Shown here piece by piece: positions 5,693 to 17,300 of a stretch of DNA of 23,498 nucleotides. A model generated the notes under the pieces. That model had not been told where the DNA came from and did no database searches. It was given only the letters and a program-made list of their open reading frames with translations. A program made the position numbers and the translations under genes. Position 1 is the first letter of the stretch, and each line of letters begins with the position of its first letter. Source of the stretch: a virus (lineage: Duplodnaviria > Heunggongvirae > Uroviricota > Caudoviricetes); the IMG/VR virus record IMGVR_UViG_2537561944_000018; one strand, given 5' to 3'.

Positions 5693-6739
5693 TTACCCAA
5701 GCACGCCAGTTGCAAAGGCGTGATCAAGAAAACGAAAAATTAAATCAACCTGAGAACCATGCTTTTCTTCGAACGCCAGCGGATCCGCATGAAGCTCGTT
5801 GTGATGCTCCCGACACAGCGGTAGCGTGAAAATATCGTGAGATTTTGTCCCCATTCCCCCCTGACCATGACCAATCAGGTGATGCGGATCGTCAGCAGGC
5901 TTACCACAACACGCACACGGCTGTGTCTTCACCCAGTGCGTGTATTTCTCGTTAACCCAGCGGCGACGTTTAGGTCGTTTCATGAAAGATTCCGGAGACT
6001 CAGGATCAACGGCAATGCTGACCACCGTCTTTTCCTGTGGCGGTTTTTGCTGGTGAGCGTGAGGCAGCGGCGCAAGATTTTTTGTGCGCTGCTTCAGTAT
6101 GCTGGTGGCGGTCTGCTCTCCCGGTACGATGTCGCTTTCACGGTACATTGAGCGGATTTTTTCCGCACGCAACCCCAGCGAACGACGTAATACCGCTTCC
6201 GGTAGCGCGTCCGCCACCTGATTGCGGACCGCCCACCAGGATAATTCAGCCAGAGATAATTCCCGTTCCTGTGCACCACTTATTGCGTGACGTATGACGT
6301 CAATCATCCAGGCTGTCAGATTTTGTTGAGCAAGCTGCCCGAGTGATTCGGATGTCTGGTCGCGCAGCTGGTTGTCGCAGTGCCAGCACAACACCATTGC
6401 GCCGGTACCATAACGGTGAATGACGGTTTCGCTGTGATGATAATCGCCGTGTGGCCACTGGCAGGATTTAATATGGCGCAACAGCCAGTCAGACAATGCA
6501 CCAGCACCACCAGCAGCACGAATCACCCGTGCGTTACTGAAAAACGGCAGCAATGTTTTGTCTTCCACTAGCGGCTGGCGAACGGCAGGAACAACCCCGG
6601 ACGGCAGATTACGCATGCTTTTCGGTTCCGGCTCCACCAGTACCCGGGTATTGTGGAATACCGGCATGGATTCACGACCCGGCTTAACGATCACCAGCCC
6701 GAGTTCCGGTACCAGAACAGGTCGAAGTAATACCCGCAC
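5693..6739 (-). CDS. DUF968 (YdfU-like) protein with C-terminal HNH-like Cys/His motif, 348 aa
   Basis: GTG start at 6739 one nt after the upstream TAA and preceded by GGAGG; C-terminal CACCGKPADDPHHLIGH...CREHHNELH. Confidence 0.8.
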   Translation of the reverse strand: MRVLLRPVLVPELGLVIVKPGRESMPVFHNTRVLVEPEPKSMRNLPSGVVPAVRQPLVEDKTLLPFFSNARVIRAAGGAGALSDWLLRHIKSCQWPHGDYHHSETVIHRYGTGAMVLCWHCDNQLRDQTSESLGQLAQQNLTAWMIDVIRHAISGAQERELSLAELSWWAVRNQVADALPEAVLRRSLGLRAEKIRSMYRESDIVPGEQTATSILKQRTKNLAPLPHAHQQKPPQEKTVVSIAVDPESPESFMKRPKRRRWVNEKYTHWVKTQPCACCGKPADDPHHLIGHGQGGMGTKSHDIFTLPLCREHHNELHADPLAFEEKHGSQVDLIFRFLDHAFATGVLG

Positions 6740-6740
6740 G

Positions 6741-7013
6741 TTACCTCCAGATGCGTTGCTGGAATGTGCGGGACGGACGCGGCGGGCGTTCGGAATAAAG
6801 GAGCCTGACGTAGATTATCCAGTGACGGTAGTCGAGGCTAAGGGCTTTCTTAAACTCATACCCACGTCTGCGGTAGTTATGAATCAGCCATTCGGCCTGT
6901 TCTTCAGTGCAGGGATCGTGCTGATACCAGTCATATTTGAATGTGTGAGAACACCGCCCTTGCCTGCTGGCAGGGGCGATATCAGAATTGTGATGTTTGG
7001 TATTGTGCGCCAT
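6741..7013 (-). CDS. Hypothetical protein (about 90 aa from ATG 7013)
   Basis: Stop TAA 6743-6741 abuts the DUF968 GTG, and the DUF968 SD lies in its 3' end; own start signals are weak. Confidence 0.45.
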   Translation of the reverse strand: MAHNTKHHNSDIAPASRQGRCSHTFKYDWYQHDPCTEEQAEWLIHNYRRRGYEFKKALSLDYRHWIIYVRLLYSERPPRPSRTFQQRIWR

Positions 7014-7085
7014 CGGTTTTCTCTGCTGGCGCAGCAGGTGCCAGTTGTTCAAGCTGGCGTGCGGCAATATTGTCTCTGATTTCTG

Positions 7086-7113
7086 TTGTCGTCAACAGGC
7101 AACGTGCTATCAT
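7086..7113 (+). promoter_or_regulatory. Candidate sigma70 promoter for the parDE-like operon
   Basis: TTGTCG (7086-7091), 16-bp spacer, TATCAT (7108-7113); SD GTGAGG at 7137-7142 precedes the ATG. Confidence 0.35.
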
Positions 7114-7148
7114 CGAATGGTGTTCTATCCTACTCCGTGAGGTTTACC

Positions 7149-7406
7149 ATGCGTACAACCCAACAATTCAGCATTACATTAACTAACGAAATGGCTGACA
7201 TGGTGCGCGCCCGTGTGGCTTCCGGTGCCTATGCTTCAGAAAGCGAGGTCATTCGTGAAGGGCTTCGCGCACTGAATGAGCGCGATAAAGCAATCGAAGC
7301 GTGGTTAACGCATTCAGCCGCCCCCTCTCTTGATTCTATCCGCGAAAATCCAAACAACGGACGCTCCATTTCACAGGTTCGCGCCGCGATTCGATCCGGG
7401 AAGTAA
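7149..7406 (+). CDS. parD: ParD/CopG-type RHH antitoxin, 85 aa
   Basis: ATG at 7149 with GTGAGG 6 nt upstream; ...ASESEVIREGLRALNERDKAIEAWL typical of ParD-like antitoxins. Confidence 0.75.
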   Translation: MRTTQQFSITLTNEMADMVRARVASGAYASESEVIREGLRALNERDKAIEAWLTHSAAPSLDSIRENPNNGRSISQVRAAIRSGK

Positions 7407-7411
7407 TCTGC

Positions 7412-7711
7412 ATGACATATGAAGTCATCATTACTCCTGAGGCCGAACAACAAATAATCAACCTGCACAGGTATATAACGGAGAAAGCAGGGAACGTCAT
7501 TGCTGACAATTATGCCAATGCGCTTCTTGATTATCTTGATGGGTTTTCTACATTCCCGCATCGGGGCAATAAACGCGATGATATTCGCCAGGGGATGCGG
7601 GTAACTCATTTCCGCCACAGAACGATTATTGCTTTTGCCGTTGATAGCAGAAAAGTCTTTATTGTCGGTATCTATCATGGTGGGCAAAGTTATGAAACCG
7701 ATTTCTTATAA
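7412..7711 (+). CDS. parE: ParE/RelE-superfamily toxin, 99 aa
   Basis: Starts 5 nt after the antitoxin stop; RelE/ParE fold signature (...RQGMRVTHFRHRTIIAFAVDSRKVFIVGIYHGGQSYE). Confidence 0.8.
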   Translation: MTYEVIITPEAEQQIINLHRYITEKAGNVIADNYANALLDYLDGFSTFPHRGNKRDDIRQGMRVTHFRHRTIIAFAVDSRKVFIVGIYHGGQSYETDFL

Positions 7712-7794
7712 ACTTTTACCCACATCATTCCGGTGTTAGAATTAACCGTCCGCCCCCTCTCTTACTGGCGGATTCGTAGGCTATATAAATCAAA

Positions 7795-7828
7795 GATCCC
7801 GGCTCATGTTTATGTCGGGATCTTTTTT
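7795..7828. terminator. Bidirectional terminator between convergent parDE and the minus-strand operon
   Basis: GATCCCG (7795-7801) / CGGGATC (7816-7822), 14-nt loop, T6 on plus (7823-7828); U-rich stretch on the minus side. Confidence 0.55.
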
Positions 7829-7835
7829 CGGCGAT

Positions 7836-7919
7836 TTATCCCCAGCGGCAAATCGAATACACCACCAGCGCCACCGCCATCGCAATTCCTACCGTTGTGA
7901 ATGCTTCAGGCCAGGTCAT
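7836..7919 (-). CDS. 27-aa hydrophobic peptide, coupled to the upstream gene
   Basis: ATG 7919-7917 overlaps the upstream TGA (ATGA); GGAGG 10 nt upstream; [27 protein letters not shown]; stop TAA 7838-7836 just before the terminator. Below the ORF-track cutoff. Confidence 0.4.
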
Positions 7920-8260
7920 CGTAAAATATCCTCCACGCTTATCAGTCCGTTCCGCTCCAGATAACTCATCGCCTTATCCGGTAATTTGCAGTCTGGCTTC
8001 GCTTTCCTCAGTTGCCAGGTTAACTGCTTTACCAGCATGGTTAACTCATCGACCAGACGCTGATATCCCACTGGTTTGTATTCATGCAATTTACCGGCTG
8101 GCTCTGCTGCCAGCGATACCAGTGCGATTTCCAGAACAGCAATATCCATCTTATATGTGCGGATGATGTCATGGTCGATTGTGCCCGGTATGCACAGTCT
8201 CTGTGTTTCAATAGTCTCCTCTGCGTGAGCTATTAACTGCTCTCTGGTAAAAGTCGTCAT
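7916..8260 (-). CDS. Hypothetical protein, 114 aa
   Basis: ATG at 8260 overlaps the HNH gene stop (ATGA); no family recognised. Confidence 0.6.
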
Positions 8261-8622
8261 GCCGTAGCCCCTTCTTGATATTTTTCAAACCAGAACACAA
8301 CTGGGTCAGATTTCATTTCAACCAATCCCATACGAACCAGCGCTTTGCCTTTCCCGGACGCAAGGAATTCACGACGACCATCACTGATAATTCGCCGATA
8401 ATCTTCCAGACTACTGCAATGCTTGTGCAGATTGCATGGGTGGCATGCCGGAACCATGTTGGATATATCGTCACGTTCCTGGTGAAGCATATTTCCATCA
8501 AAACGAATGACCGGTTTTACATGGTCTGCATGCCACTTTTCGCCAAGTTCGCAGCCGCAATAAGCACAGCGACCGCCGAACTTCATGCGCAGCTCTGCAC
8601 GTTGTTTTTTCGTCAGTGCCAT
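8257..8622 (-). CDS. HNH endonuclease, 121 aa
   Basis: Internal ATG at 8622 with AAGGA upstream; CAYCGCEL...HADHVKPV...CHPCN HNH motif. Confidence 0.8.
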
Positions 8623-8623
8623 A

Positions 8624-8842
8624 TCAGCTTTCCTTATACGGATTAATTTTATTGTGCAGTGTGCTGAACGACGCCCACACCACGTCGTTATACAATTCAA
8701 TAACTGGCTCAATTATTTTCACGATAAACCAGACCAGTAATAGCGGGGGTATCGGTATCATCAACACGATAAATATAATGAGAAACAAAAATTCTGTCGC
8801 TCTACTTTTTCTCGGATATTCTTTTCTGAATAATGTAGTCAT
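8624..8842 (-). CDS. Small membrane protein, 72 aa
   Basis: ATG at 8842; central hydrophobic stretch FLFLIIFIVLMIPIPPLLLVWFIVKII; stop TGA 1 nt before the HNH ATG. Confidence 0.5.
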   Translation of the reverse strand: MTTLFRKEYPRKSRATEFLFLIIFIVLMIPIPPLLLVWFIVKIIEPVIELYNDVVWASFSTLHNKINPYKES

Positions 8843-12024: not shown

Positions 12025-12327
12025 ATGAGCAGAAAAACCCAACGTTACTCTAAAGAGTTCAAAGCCGAAGCTGTCAGAACGGGTCTCGAAAATCAACTTT
12101 CGATCAGTGAAGGCGCTTCCCGATTATCTCTTCCTGAAGGCACTTTAGGACAATGGGTTACCGCCGCCAGAAAAGGGCTCGGTACTCCTGGTTCCCGCAC
12201 GGTGGCTGAACTGGAATCTGAAATTCTGCAACTGCGTAAGGCGTTAAATGAAGCTCGCCTTGAGCGAGATATATTAAAAAAAGCAACAGCGTATTTTGCA
12301 CAGGAGTCGCTGAAAAATACGCGTTAA
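12025..12327 (+). CDS. IS3-family transposase OrfA (HTH), 100 aa
   Basis: ATG at 12025; MSRKTQRYSKEFKAEAVR... typical IS3-family OrfA with a leucine-zipper-like C-terminus. Confidence 0.8.
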   Translation: MSRKTQRYSKEFKAEAVRTGLENQLSISEGASRLSLPEGTLGQWVTAARKGLGTPGSRTVAELESEILQLRKALNEARLERDILKKATAYFAQESLKNTR

Positions 12328-13181
12328 TCGAACAATGGCGACAACAATTTCCCATTGAAGCGATGTGTCAGGTATTTGGTGTATCCAGGAGCGGTTATTA
12401 CAACTGGGTACAGCATGAACCCTCAGACAGAAAACAAAGTGATGAGCGGCTAAAACTGGAGATTAAGGTGGCACATATCCGCACTCGCGAAACATATGGA
12501 ACCCGGCGGCTCCAGACGGAGCTGGCAGAGAATGGCATCATCGTTGGTCGTGACCGACTGGCACGTCTTCGTAAGGAGCTAAGGCTACGCTGTAAGCAGA
12601 AACGCAAGTTCAGAGCGACTACGAACTCGAACCACAATCTGCCAGTTGCGCCAAATCTGCTGAACCAGACGTTCGCTCCTACAGCACCAAATCAGGTCTG
12701 GGTGGCGGACCTGACGTATGTTGCCACACAGGAGGGATGGTTGTACCTCGCTGGCATCAAAGATGTTTATACGTGCGAAATTGTCGGCTACGCCATGGGA
12801 GAGCGCATGACAAAAGAGCTGACAGGTAAAGCTCTGTTTATGGCGCTCAGGAGCCAGCGCCCACCTGCCGGGCTAATCCACCACTCTGATCGAGGTTCAC
12901 AGTACTGCGCATACGATTACCGGGTCATACAGGAGCAGTTTGGTCTGAAAACATCAATGTCGCGTAAAGGTAACTGTTACGACAACGCTCCGATGGAAAG
13001 CTTCTGGGGAACGCTGAAAAATGAGAGCCTGAGCCACTATCGTTTTAATAACCGGGATGAAGCCATCTCAGTAATACGGGAATACATTGAGATTTTCTAC
13101 AATCGTCAGCGTCGTCACTCTCGTCTGGGGAATATCTCCCCGGCAGCCTTCAGGGAAAAATATCATCAGATGGCTGCTTAA
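12264..13181 (+). CDS. IS3-family transposase OrfB (DDE/rve integrase domain), made as an OrfAB fusion by -1 frameshift
   Basis: The -1 frame is open from 12264; slippery A AAA AAA G at 12276-12283 inside orfA; DDE motifs (...HHSDRGSQY...YDNAPMES...). Confidence 0.75.
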   Translation, partial: ARYIKKSNSVFCTGVAEKYALIEQWRQQFPIEAMCQVFGVSRSGYYNWVQHEPSDRKQSDERLKLEIKVAHIRTRETYGTRRLQTELAENGIIVGRDRLARLRKELRLRCKQKRKFRATTNSNHNLPVAPNLLNQTFAPTAPNQVWVADLTYVATQEGWLYLAGIKDVYTCEIVGYAMGERMTKELTGKALFMALRSQRPPAGLIHHSDRGSQYCAYDYRVIQEQFGLKTSMSRKGNCYDNAPMESFWGTLKNESLSHYRFNNRDEAISVIREYIEIFYNRQRRHSRLGNISPAAFREKYHQMAA

Positions 13182-15279: not shown

Positions 15280-15717
15280 TCAATGCACCACAACAGACTC
15301 GCCGGATGACCCGCCGTCGCTGAAATACGCTTTCCGGTAAACTGCCTGGACTGCATCATCATGCGCATCAATTGCCGTGCTCAACGCTTCCTGGGCCGCC
15401 AGTAATGCACGGCGCTCAACAGTGTCAAAAATACTGAGGTGATAACGCAGTTCACGCGGAAGAACAGTCAGGATAGCTGGAATTAGTGCCTGAATTTTTT
15501 CAACAGCATCAGGCGTATCCTTTTCAAGCCAGCGAAAAATATTTTGTATGTTCAATCCAATACCCTCTGTCGTAGAGGTGTCATGCATTGGTGGATAAGT
15601 CATTTCAAGCTCAAAATATGCTGTCGCTATATCATCAGCGATTTTTTTGCGCCCTACCCTCGGATAAAGCAGCCACGCATTCATCGCCATGCGGATGTGC
15701 TCATGCTTGATTTTCAT
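15280..15717 (-). CDS. YdaT-like protein (cII position), 145 aa
   Basis: ATG at 15717 overlaps the Cro-like stop (ATGA); C-terminal ...ERRALLAAQEALSTAIDAHDDAVQAVYRKA resembles Rac YdaT as recalled. Confidence 0.65.
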   Translation of the reverse strand: MKIKHEHIRMAMNAWLLYPRVGRKKIADDIATAYFELEMTYPPMHDTSTTEGIGLNIQNIFRWLEKDTPDAVEKIQALIPAILTVLPRELRYHLSIFDTVERRALLAAQEALSTAIDAHDDAVQAVYRKAYFSDGGSSGESVVVH

Positions 15718-15974
15718 GAATCAACTCCCGCCGCTGCTTGTGCGTTAGCCTGATACTCAACAGGTAAACCATCGGTTGGATTAGGGTATTTATCAGGGCG
15801 CAATTCATGCGGAGTTACTCCCCAGTCAAGCGCCTCACATGCTGGTATAACCTCCTCCGCTGGCACTCGTTTTTTAAACCACCCACTTATGGTTTGCGGT
15901 GTTTTACCAAGACGACGCCCTAATTCTGATTGGCTCATTATTGACAGGATTTTCACTTGAGTACTTTTTTGCAT
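15714..15974 (-). CDS. Cro-like HTH regulator (YdaS/DicC-type), 86 aa
   Basis: ATG at 15974 with GGAGGG 4 nt upstream; HTH SQSELGRRLGKTPQTISGWFKKR; divergent from the repressor gene. Confidence 0.75.
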   Translation of the reverse strand: MQKSTQVKILSIMSQSELGRRLGKTPQTISGWFKKRVPAEEVIPACEALDWGVTPHELRPDKYPNPTDGLPVEYQANAQAAAGVDS

Positions 15975-16100
15975 GTTTCCCTCCGAACTTTACGATGACA
16001 CCGATAATTACAAATTTAAATTTAAATTTCAACTTCTATTTGTAATGCCACTTATCAATTTTTTCTGTAGGATCGCGGAACTAGTTTACGAGGGGTGGTG
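15975..16100. promoter_or_regulatory. Divergent promoter/operator region between the Cro-like and repressor genes
   Basis: Contains AATTACAAATTTAA (16006-16019) and its inverted partner ATTTGTAA (16038-16045) flanking a TTTAAATTTAAATTT repeat; candidate -35/-10 elements on both strands. Confidence 0.5.
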
Positions 16101-16493
16101 ATGATCTTTGTAAAACGCCTTCAGCAGGTGTTGCAGGAATTGAATATAAACCAGTCAGAGCTGGGAAGACGTCTTGGTGTAAAACCCCAATCCGTGCAAG
16201 GTTGGTTGAAAGGCGTGATGCCAAGAATGGATAAACTGGAAAAATTAGCAGAGCTCTCACAACATCCCGTCCATTGGTTCTTTATGGAAGAAGAAACTCT
16301 CGGCGATAAAATGGCTGTATCCAGTAATGACAACCAACCGCAACTTACAGAACAACAACGAAAAATCATATCGCTTTTAGATGAGTTACCTCAAAGCGAC
16401 GCAGAGCAGATCATTCGTGATATGGAGCAAAAACGCGATTTCTATAAACGGAAACTTGAAGAGTTACTGCGGCAGAAAAACAAAACTGCCTGA
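16101..16493 (+). CDS. DicA-like prophage repressor (HTH-XRE), 130 aa
   Basis: ATG at 16101 with AGGGG 5 nt upstream; N-terminal HTH LNINQSELGRRLGVKPQSVQGWLKG and a DicA-like C-terminus (...LPQSDAEQ...YKRKLEELL) as recalled. Confidence 0.8.
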   Translation: MIFVKRLQQVLQELNINQSELGRRLGVKPQSVQGWLKGVMPRMDKLEKLAELSQHPVHWFFMEEETLGDKMAVSSNDNQPQLTEQQRKIISLLDELPQSDAEQIIRDMEQKRDFYKRKLEELLRQKNKTA

Positions 16494-16900: not shown

Positions 16901-17203
16901 TTACTCCAGTTCGATGGTATCAGCATCAATAGCATCGTATTCCTTGTGGTTTCCGATGAATTTAACAAATACCCATCCTCGCTGATACGCAATTGCAACA
17001 ATTAAACGGTAATGATTACCTTTTATGTTGAATACCACGCGCCGGTTTTTCAATATACTGGCCGTTCGGTATTGTGCCTTAATGTCTGCTGGGCTTTTCC
17101 AGTCAGCTTTTGCCGCCTCATCCACCCATGCCCTTAGCGGTTGTTCTGCATCAGGATTCTCCGCCCAAAAATCCCTGAGTGTTTTAACTGAGATAATCTT
17201 CAT
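16901..17203 (-). CDS. higB: HigB-family toxin (RelE/ParE superfamily), 100 aa
   Basis: ATG at 17203; ...VVFNIKGNHYRLIVAIAYQRGWVFVKFIGNHKEYD matches the E. coli HigB motif VFNVGGNELRVV...THKEYD as recalled; toxin-first order, stop 2 nt before the higA ATG. Confidence 0.75.
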   Translation of the reverse strand: MKIISVKTLRDFWAENPDAEQPLRAWVDEAAKADWKSPADIKAQYRTASILKNRRVVFNIKGNHYRLIVAIAYQRGWVFVKFIGNHKEYDAIDADTIELE

Positions 17204-17246
17204 AACTGTATAGTAGTCCCATTTTGGGACTGATGCAACAGCCCGC

Positions 17247-17300
17247 AATTACAAATTTAATAATAAACATGTTGACCAGTTAAATTTTAATTTGTAAATT
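17247..17300. promoter_or_regulatory. Second operator-like site with candidate rightward promoter (PdicB-like) upstream of higB
   Basis: Exact 14-mer AATTACAAATTTAA (17247-17260) plus inverted ATTTGTAA (17290-17297); plus-strand TTGACC (17272-17277), 17-bp spacer, TAAATT (17295-17300). Confidence 0.45.

Follow-up and report, generated by a model that had tools for sequence, protein, structure and literature searches.

A probable self-contained ParD-ParE toxin-antitoxin insert at a site of exchangeable cargo in an enterohaemorrhagic Escherichia coli lambdoid prophage

The virus record IMGVR_UViG_2537561944_000018 of IMG/VR (Caudoviricetes; 23,498 nucleotides (nt), whose full length is called the window below) derives from a lambdoid prophage of enterohaemorrhagic Escherichia coli (EHEC). 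It carries, between 7066 and about 7835, a small cassette with two genes, parD and parE, which are separated by 5 nt and oriented antisense to the phage early-right operon. The original prediction, made from the letters alone, had described an inverted parDE-like cassette with its own promoter and terminator, and both of its open reading frames (ORFs) are present as given there. The genes, the regulatory elements and the neighbouring features are collected in Table 1.

Table 1. Features of the parDE cassette, of its flanks and of related loci.
Feature	Position	Strand	Basis or detail
parD, ribbon-helix-helix (RHH) antitoxin and presumed autorepressor	7149-7406	+	85 amino acids (aa); PF03693, TIGR02606; RHH model
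parE, ParE-type toxin	7412-7711	+	99 aa; PF05016; structure model
parDE control region	7066-7148	+	promoter scan, palindrome search, cross-genus alignment
Palindrome CTGTTG-4-CAACAG	7083-7098		over the parD -35
-35 TTGTCG	7086-7091	+	parD promoter
Extended -10 TG	7105-7106	+	parD promoter
-10 TATCAT	7108-7113	+	parD promoter, spacing 16
Conserved block GAATGGTGTTCTATCCTACT	7115-7134	+	between -10 and Shine-Dalgarno sequence (SD)
SD GAGG	7139-7142	+	ahead of parD
Divergent promoter-like site TTGACG-18-AATATT	7066-7095	-	scan match; back-to-back with the parD promoter
3' untranslated segment (3'-UTR)	7712-7791	+	promoter-like site 7715-7742; hairpin 7748-7773, loop repeats 14 nt of parD
Bidirectional intrinsic terminator-like hairpin	7792-7828		hairpin scan, compensatory stem changes
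Conserved spacer, 52 nt, left anchor of the slot	7014-7065		91-100% identity beside the 90-aa gene whatever the cargo
27-codon small hydrophobic-peptide gene, right anchor of the slot	7836-7919	-	homology limits, codon variation, tblastn
90-aa gene, phrog_1212; adjoins the slot on the left	6741-7013	-	PHROG match 1.6e-35
DUF968 gene (YdfU-like, HNH-type)	5693-6739	-	PF06147 E 8.2e-77; RefSeq annotation of identical region
114-aa accessory gene, last of the ead/Ea22-type block	7916-8260	-	RefSeq annotation, PHROG search, related-locus comparison
isrK-side loci	L002 4059-4241; L004 2812-2994; L090 3562-3641	-	Rfam
Orphan ParD locus	L004 3001-4062; also L096-L103		O157 Stx2a phage LC727840 (L004)

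The assignment of the gene pair to the ParD/ParE type II toxin-antitoxin systems is supported by family models, predicted fold and conserved pairing. In profile searches for the ParE/RelE and ParD/CopG families, ParD scored above the cut-offs of PF03693 (ParD_antitoxin; E 1.6e-7, 32.1 bits, cut-off 21) and of NCBIfam TIGR02606 (E 1.5e-14, 53.8 bits, cut-off 46.2), and ParE matched PF05016 (ParE_toxin; E 4.5e-10, 40.4 bits, cut-off 23) over the full model, positions 1-89 of 89. Both proteins also match end to end dedicated PHROGs "moron" families, phrog_6494 and phrog_5232. The names already in place in RefSeq are ParD family antitoxin and RelE/ParE family toxin, and the GenBank record of phage ArgO145 labels the two genes antitoxin and toxin. 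The nearest solved relatives by sequence are ParD-ParE complexes. A profile search with ParE returned 2287 representative clusters at E <= 0.001, which places the toxin in a large ParE subfamily.

The structure models agree with this assignment. The AlphaFold (AF2) model of ParE, built from an alignment with 21 homologues (mean predicted confidence, pLDDT, 83.5), begins with a long helical hairpin (H9-26/H28-47), after which comes a three-stranded sheet. In a Foldseek search against the PDB, ranks 1 to 22 were all ParE-type chains with a query TM-score (TMq) of 0.63-0.73, including PfiT at the top, Mesorhizobium ParE3, PrpT, the ParE proteins of Pseudomonas, Vibrio and M. tuberculosis, O157 ParE2 and Caulobacter ParE1, while RelE, YoeB, YafQ and HigB ranked below with TMq <= 0.55. 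In the ParD model the RHH core superposes on solved ParD RHH domains at 1.2-1.4 Å and is followed by a helical C-terminal extension. The earlier call of a ParD-like RHH antitoxin with a ParE/RelE-like toxin is thus borne out by the family thresholds and by a toxin model nearer to ParE than to the RelE-type RNases. These same data bear on the alternative in which the toxin would not poison gyrase but act, like RelE, as a ribosome-dependent mRNA endonuclease. PF05016 spans the whole RelE/ParE superfamily, the RefSeq name goes no further than "RelE/ParE family" and K-12 carries relBE at the equivalent position; nevertheless the order of the structural matches, the helical hairpin typical of ParE toxins and a partner of the ParD type above the TIGR02606 cut-off make the endonuclease reading improbable.

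The pairing is conserved well beyond the window. ParD lies immediately upstream of ParE in all the E. coli variants examined and in all the diverged homologues examined, which come from a Yersinia P2-like prophage, an Enterobacter island with an integrase and insertion sequence (IS) elements, and a Desulfovibrio locus; parE without parD was never seen among these loci. The N-terminal 47 residues of ParD, the DNA-binding part, are near-invariant across Enterobacterales from E. coli to Erwinia, and its C-terminal third varies. In solved complexes this C-terminal third contacts the toxin. The ratio of non-synonymous to synonymous substitution rates (dN/dS) between E. coli alleles is 0.06-0.21 for parD and 0.02-0.20 for parE, and from these alignments both genes are judged intact and under purifying selection. 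It is therefore very improbable that the cassette is an inactive relic: although some database members are truncated or frameshifted (P0012, P0028-P0034) and O157 commonly has a derivative that lacks the toxin, the copy in the window is full length, its regulatory elements are conserved, dN/dS stays low over both genes and the identical protein recurs in many lineages. In the comparison of the window with loci L006-L008 and L031, synonymous divergence is several-fold higher in parE (0.23-0.43) than in parD (0.016-0.085), suggesting recombination breakpoints within the cassette. In the Yersinia prophage (L090, 3738-5848) the ParD-ParE pair is followed by a 63-aa second ParD-like gene and a YafO-family toxin gene, all between the tail tube and tape-measure genes of the tail region; this looks like another toxin-antitoxin cluster within a phage.

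The candidate parD promoter of the original prediction (7086-7113) was recovered by the scan exactly there, as TTGTCG-16-TATCAT with a TG extension, and alignment of the upstream regions of E. coli, Yersinia and Enterobacter shows that its footprint is kept across genera. The extended -10 (TGnTAxxxT) holds its position in the Yersinia and Enterobacter homologues while the neighbouring sequence has diverged. Two further blocks are conserved across the three genera, GTTGTCGTCAAC over the -35, which in E. coli is part of the CTGTTG-4-CAACAG palindrome, and AATAGTGTTCTATCCTACT between the -10 and the SD, and the remainder of the region diverges. These blocks likely represent a putative ParD operator region. 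Additional ParD operators elsewhere in the prophage were discarded, as the 15-mer conserved motif proximal to parD has no further copy in the window and the palindrome has only loose matches. A 43-aa ORF at 6982-7113(-), annotated by PGAP as a hypothetical protein in some genomes, overlaps the promoter, is distinct from the 27-codon ORF of Table 1 and was treated as spurious.

The minus-strand promoter-like site shares this palindrome, since both divergent -35 hexamers lie within GTTGTCGTCAAC and TTGACG is its other half. In three other phages, namely ArgO145, the O157 Stx2a phages and the Yersinia prophage, the small RNA (sRNA) isrK stands opposite the parDE promoter; it was identified by Rfam above the gathering score (53 bits in L004) and starts 7 nt downstream of a minus-strand TATATT. 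Beyond isrK, the two E. coli Shiga toxin (Stx) phages carry a C4 antisense RNA and an antirepressor. A transfer RNA or attachment-site remnant left of the cassette in ArgO145, considered because of a TΨC-like motif, was rejected: ARAGORN found none, and Rfam identified the sequence as isrK beside the C4 antisense RNA. In the window the leader of the 90-aa gene (orf90) takes the place of isrK exactly at the -10, the same point where ArgO145 homology begins; the -35 TTGACG is retained and the -10 is degraded from TATATT to AATATT. The site points at the 90-aa gene, and any activity there would be a prediction from sequence only. This arrangement raises the possibility that regulation of the prophage is the main task of the pair, exerted by way of the ParD:ParE ratio, as for PfiT/PfiA of Pf4 (PMC13048266), or by ParD repressing the divergent promoter toward the 90-aa gene, DUF968, RusA and Q. 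Apart from the Pf4 precedent, the shared palindrome and the antirepressor-linked isrK across the same promoter pair would fit such a role. We regard it as having little chance of being correct, since the divergent -10 is degraded in the window, the parD-proximal motif lacks a second copy, and in most phages the slot functions with cargo of an unrelated kind, which implies that phage development is independent of parDE.

At the other end, the bidirectional terminator that had been placed at 7795-7828 is found as a hairpin with T tails on both strands and covariation in the stem. The stem has 10-12 bp, and its perfect arms, of 10 bp each, span 7792-7801 and 7816-7825. Behind it come T6 on the plus strand and the U-rich run TTTGATTTAT on the minus strand. 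A simple terminator scan missed this hairpin because the 14-nt loop between the perfect arms exceeds its 8-nt limit. The variants include one with a compensatory A-T to C-G change and others with G.U to A-U changes. An exact 14-nt direct repeat, CCGCCCCCTCTCTT, occurs at 7318-7331 within parD and at 7750-7763 in the loop of the 3'-UTR hairpin. The idea that the 3' segment was left over from a second parD, such as the Yersinia locus has, was abandoned because there is no nucleotide or translated similarity past the 14-mer. The plus-strand segment 7712-7835, with an extended -10 promoter-like site, a hairpin whose loop is CU-rich, an AU-rich linker and the U6 terminator, looks like an sRNA gene candidate; it matches no Rfam family, mostly travels together with parDE, and is found without parDE in L065 and NZ_AP042500.

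The limits of the cassette were defined by three phage comparisons, and its borders recur in different contexts. Phage 689R5 has the same flanks with hok and a 130-aa gene as cargo, and homology to a hok-carrying phage stops at 7063. ArgO145 shares the cassette and the right flank and has another left flank, and the O157 Stx2a phages have only 7066-7425 in common with the window; the left junction at 7066 is common to both. Of 5426 complete E. coli genomes, 371 carry the cassette, always on the chromosome; its coverage is >= 80% in 328. A plasmid origin was rejected: the sole strong "plasmid" match is a 1.4-Mb record, and the others are matches of about 70% to the ParD RHH region in unrelated bacteria.

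A census of the 3 kb upstream of the 90-aa gene was carried out in the 80 viral contigs closest to the window's copy, out of at least 598 contig stretches that contain this gene. The sample is biased to relatives of the window, and the class may be incomplete for eight loci with less than 900 nt of upstream sequence. The probed cargo genes occurred in 13 combinations. The most frequent was hok alone (26 of the 80 loci), followed by parDE (15), a C5 methylase with an NgoMIV-type restriction enzyme (9), and hok together with Rosmerta RmrT/RmrA (8), with a Rem homologue (6) or with the 130-aa gene (5). A 110-aa membrane coiled-coil protein and a Fic/Doc-type protein (in one locus also with hok) were each present twice, while a 153-aa membrane protein, hok with HicAB, and an antirepressor were each present once; four loci had none of the probed cargo, and parDE and hok never occurred together among the 80. 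Loci L045, L014, L036, L065, L032 and L023 provide examples of the Rosmerta, NgoMIV-type, HicAB and Fic/Doc-type cargo and of the membrane or coiled-coil proteins, which belong to no Pfam family and have at most marginal PADLOC matches. In the Qin prophage of K-12 the order is ydfU, rem, hokD, relE, relB, as the original prediction had it in placing relBE and hokD beside ydfU; in MG1655 (L009, 3200-3602) an unannotated copy of the 90-aa gene region, 83% identical, lies between ydfU and rem. The proposed swapping of cassettes at a hotspot is therefore upheld, since the same flanks hold hok, HicAB, Fic/Doc, Rosmerta or a restriction-modification pair in other phages and the comparison of the ydfU-flanking locus, across these contigs and Qin, shows interchangeable cargo. 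The description of the cassette as lying beside the DUF968 gene holds for the neighbourhood, though the 90-aa gene, unrelated to Rem, is what stands next to DUF968. Taken together, the data support a slot with conserved flanks and diverse cargo that includes known defence systems. With a predicted promoter and terminator of its own, and replaced between otherwise homologous phages, the cassette has the features of a phage moron. This lambdoid slot was not found described in literature searches; P2-like phages and P4-like satellites are known to carry defence hotspots (PMC9122126), which likewise have conserved flanks and exchangeable cargo including restriction-modification, toxin-antitoxin and newer defence systems, in another phage group and at another position.

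On these grounds we consider it highly probable that a type II ParD-ParE module makes up this region and forms a self-contained insert where the lambdoid prophage accommodates variable cargo. Several points weigh against this proposal. The similarity of the toxin to solved ParE proteins is weak (E 0.011, 24% identity), the promoter scan match (9/12) is not significant alone, with three sites found and 2.3 expected, and a PADLOC scan of ParD and ParE gave no defence-model match. Gyrase action has not been shown for every ParE-fold toxin. Literature searches for experimental work on this ParDE pair found none, and for this reason toxicity, neutralisation, autoregulation and target are all inferred. 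Following the established ParDE systems of RK2, Caulobacter, Vibrio and Mesorhizobium, we propose that the cassette would be transcribed from its own promoter in the lysogen, with ParD dimers binding the promoter DNA via the N-terminal ribbon and repressing it, while the C-terminal third of ParD would wrap around ParE and neutralise it. Upon loss or shut-off of the cassette, the labile ParD would decay and ParE would be freed; judging only from its fold class, ParE would most likely poison DNA gyrase, leading to cell arrest or death. The terminator would in addition halt unmodified early transcripts ahead of DUF968-RusA-Q, in which case these genes would depend on antitermination or on the divergent promoter. 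By analogy with the documented ParE systems of prophages that have a stabilising or modulating effect on the phage, ParESO-CopASO, which retains prophage CP4So (PMC8706911), and PfiT/PfiA (PMC7264888, PMC13048266), the likeliest main benefit would be retention of the cassette and the prophage, that is, addiction. Exclusion of competing phages is plausible as a second role given the other occupants of the slot, and the pair may also tune induction in the manner of PfiT/PfiA (PMC13048266).

The reverse weighting, with anti-phage defence or inter-phage competition by abortive infection as the main role and addiction as secondary, seems unlikely to us, though it deserves some weight. In such a scheme an infecting phage would shut off host transcription, ParD would decay and ParE would stop the cell before the phage cycle ends. 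The slot also holds validated defence types, the Rosmerta pair RmrT/RmrA and the type II restriction-modification pair, but this tie is positional only, neither ParD nor ParE matched a PADLOC model, and no literature report of ParDE-mediated phage defence was found. A ParD-only truncated version in the O157 Stx2a phages would be expected if the antitoxin can act as counter-defence, a possibility raised by the authors of PMC12502783. In these phages homology ends at 7425 and parE is shrunk to 7 codons. The orphan ParD, with 86% identity to the window ParD, was detected in 2190 sequence-collection blocks; across the eight contexts displayed it has no ParE next to it and is always followed by an ORF of 65-90 aa, with a HigA-like helix-turn-helix (HTH) gene after that in most. 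By eye, the longest (93-aa) reading of this ORF in L004 is lipoprotein-like. A ParD with 94% identity to the orphan partners a ParE with 91% identity to the window ParE. Orphan antitoxins in EHEC phages have been noted with no role assigned, and there is no verified case of a classical type II antitoxin as phage counter-defence (PMC12502783). The more far-reaching idea that the slot is the lambdoid counterpart of the P2/P4 hotspots, with ParDE as an abortive-infection or exclusion module and the orphan ParD as a captured antitoxin for infecting, or co-residing with, parDE lysogens, is one to which we give a low probability.

The right anchor of the slot is a gene in its own right. The original prediction had placed a coupled 27-codon hydrophobic ORF against the terminator; its presence and coupling stand, and it belongs to the conserved right flank rather than to the cassette. 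Its start overlaps the stop of the 114-aa ORF (ATGA at 7916-7919), and homology runs exactly from ATG to TAA in 39 loci (28 distinct sequences), between at least five unrelated upstream gene ends and at least three unrelated downstream sequences. Each upstream gene end has GGAGG 6-9 nt ahead of the ORF and the ATGA stop-start overlap. The variant sites are 23 synonymous and 16 non-synonymous against 60:183 expected (binomial p = 5.5e-6), and tblastn matches with 59-100% identity come from 90 phage records, among them 933W, VT2-Sakai and BP-4795. A 1-nt deletion just past the ATG is present in 3 of the 39 loci and in 689R5. The annotations inspected, those of the RefSeq records and of 933W, do not list the ORF as a gene. 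By these sequence criteria it is a real gene for a small membrane peptide, is under purifying selection and is coupled in translation to the gene upstream. In 933W its homologue lies between the ead/Ea22 block and hokW/sokW, so that in the early-left region, too, the junction behind this ORF is a place where toxin-antitoxin cargo lands.

The 6700-8300 region is 100% identical to O26:H11 11368, O103:H2 12009 and many other genomes. The gene order was taken from the RefSeq annotation of the identical O26:H11 region, and the immunity, replication and flanking genes were re-checked in the window by Pfam. Going leftward on the minus strand, the immunity region is followed by replication genes, an ead/Ea22-type accessory block, an HNH gene, the 114-aa gene, the parDE cassette, the 90-aa gene, DUF968, RusA, a Q-like region, lysis genes and terminase. 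DUF968 forms part of the conserved left-hand neighbourhood, with RusA and the Q-like antiterminator region after it, and the 114-aa gene is swapped for DUF551 or other genes in related prophages. A Rem-like identity of the 90-aa gene was ruled out by the absence of BLASTP similarity to K-12 Rem; one phage record nonetheless labels a homologue "toxin to Rem". The plus orientation of parDE within this long minus-strand block is as had been claimed, but these are not its only plus-strand genes, as there are also an IS3-family element at 12025-13181(+) and a repressor-like gene at 16095-16493(+). The IS3-family element has HTH_Tnp_1 and rve ORFs and is missing at the same place in the O26:H11 11368 annotation. 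A YdaS/YdaT pair (15280-15974, minus strand) and a HigB toxin gene (16901-17248, minus strand) adjoin the immunity region, indicating that the prophage holds further toxin-antitoxin-like modules; the O26:H11 annotation has an HTH gene beside HigB. The HNH endonuclease gene two genes rightward (8257-8712, minus strand) gave weak PADLOC matches to Septu PtuB-type models (best E 3.3e-8), which probably reflect merely the shared HNH domain. An Rfam scan of 6500-8500 gave no credible match.

Among characterised systems, PaaR2-PaaA2-ParE2 of E. coli O157:H7 prophages has three components, with an antitoxin devoid of a DNA-binding domain and a separate regulator. It resembles the window pair in placing a ParE-fold toxin (PDB 5czf/5cw7; TMq about 0.71) in an EHEC lambdoid prophage, whereas in the window one RHH ParD would do both the antitoxin and the regulator jobs. 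RK2 parDE, Caulobacter ParD1-ParE1 (3kxe), Mesorhizobium ParD3-ParE3 (5ceg/6x0a) and Vibrio ParD2-ParE2 (7r5a) share with it a ParE-fold toxin of about 100 aa whose gene immediately follows that of an RHH antitoxin, a promoter palindrome and the same predicted folds; they differ in residing on plasmids or the core chromosome instead of a prophage, in a toxin identity of 17-24%, and in that the window pair is known from sequence and models. ParESO-CopASO of the Shewanella prophage CP4So and PfiT-PfiA of Pseudomonas Pf4 (PDB 9w3a), which keep the excised prophage stable or adjust phage output (PMC8706911, PMC7264888, PMC13048266), are likewise prophage-encoded ParE-family toxins with DNA-binding antitoxins, but they belong to other phage types, their antitoxins have other DNA-binding domains, and PfiT's C-terminal extension is missing in the window ParE. 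The relBE-hokD genes of K-12 Qin, at the equivalent position beside ydfU, and hokW/sokW of 933W, after the small-ORF homologue that closes the ead/Ea22 block, are comparable toxin-antitoxin cargo; they belong to other toxin families (an mRNA interferase, and a membrane peptide with an antisense RNA) and are co-oriented with the phage genes, not inverted.

The parDE pair is thus an uncharacterised member of a well-known family that annotation pipelines had already named. In itself the pair adds little and its context is more useful, the added value being the precise definition of the slot, the recognition of the small ORF as a gene and the connection made with the orphan ParD. A slot with precise anchors in lambdoid and Stx-type prophages could be mined for new defence or addiction systems, the more so as several of its cargo genes have no known family. 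A conserved, unannotated gene for a 27-residue membrane peptide is exposed in 933W, VT2-Sakai and many other Stx phages. For the O157 Stx2a phages, the window provides an intact cognate relative with which the role of the orphan ParD can be probed; if it were indeed a captured antitoxin, it would be the first classical type II antitoxin used as phage counter-defence. Finally, and as a speculation, if ParE poisons gyrase its release would trigger the SOS response and could affect the induction of Stx phages in EHEC.

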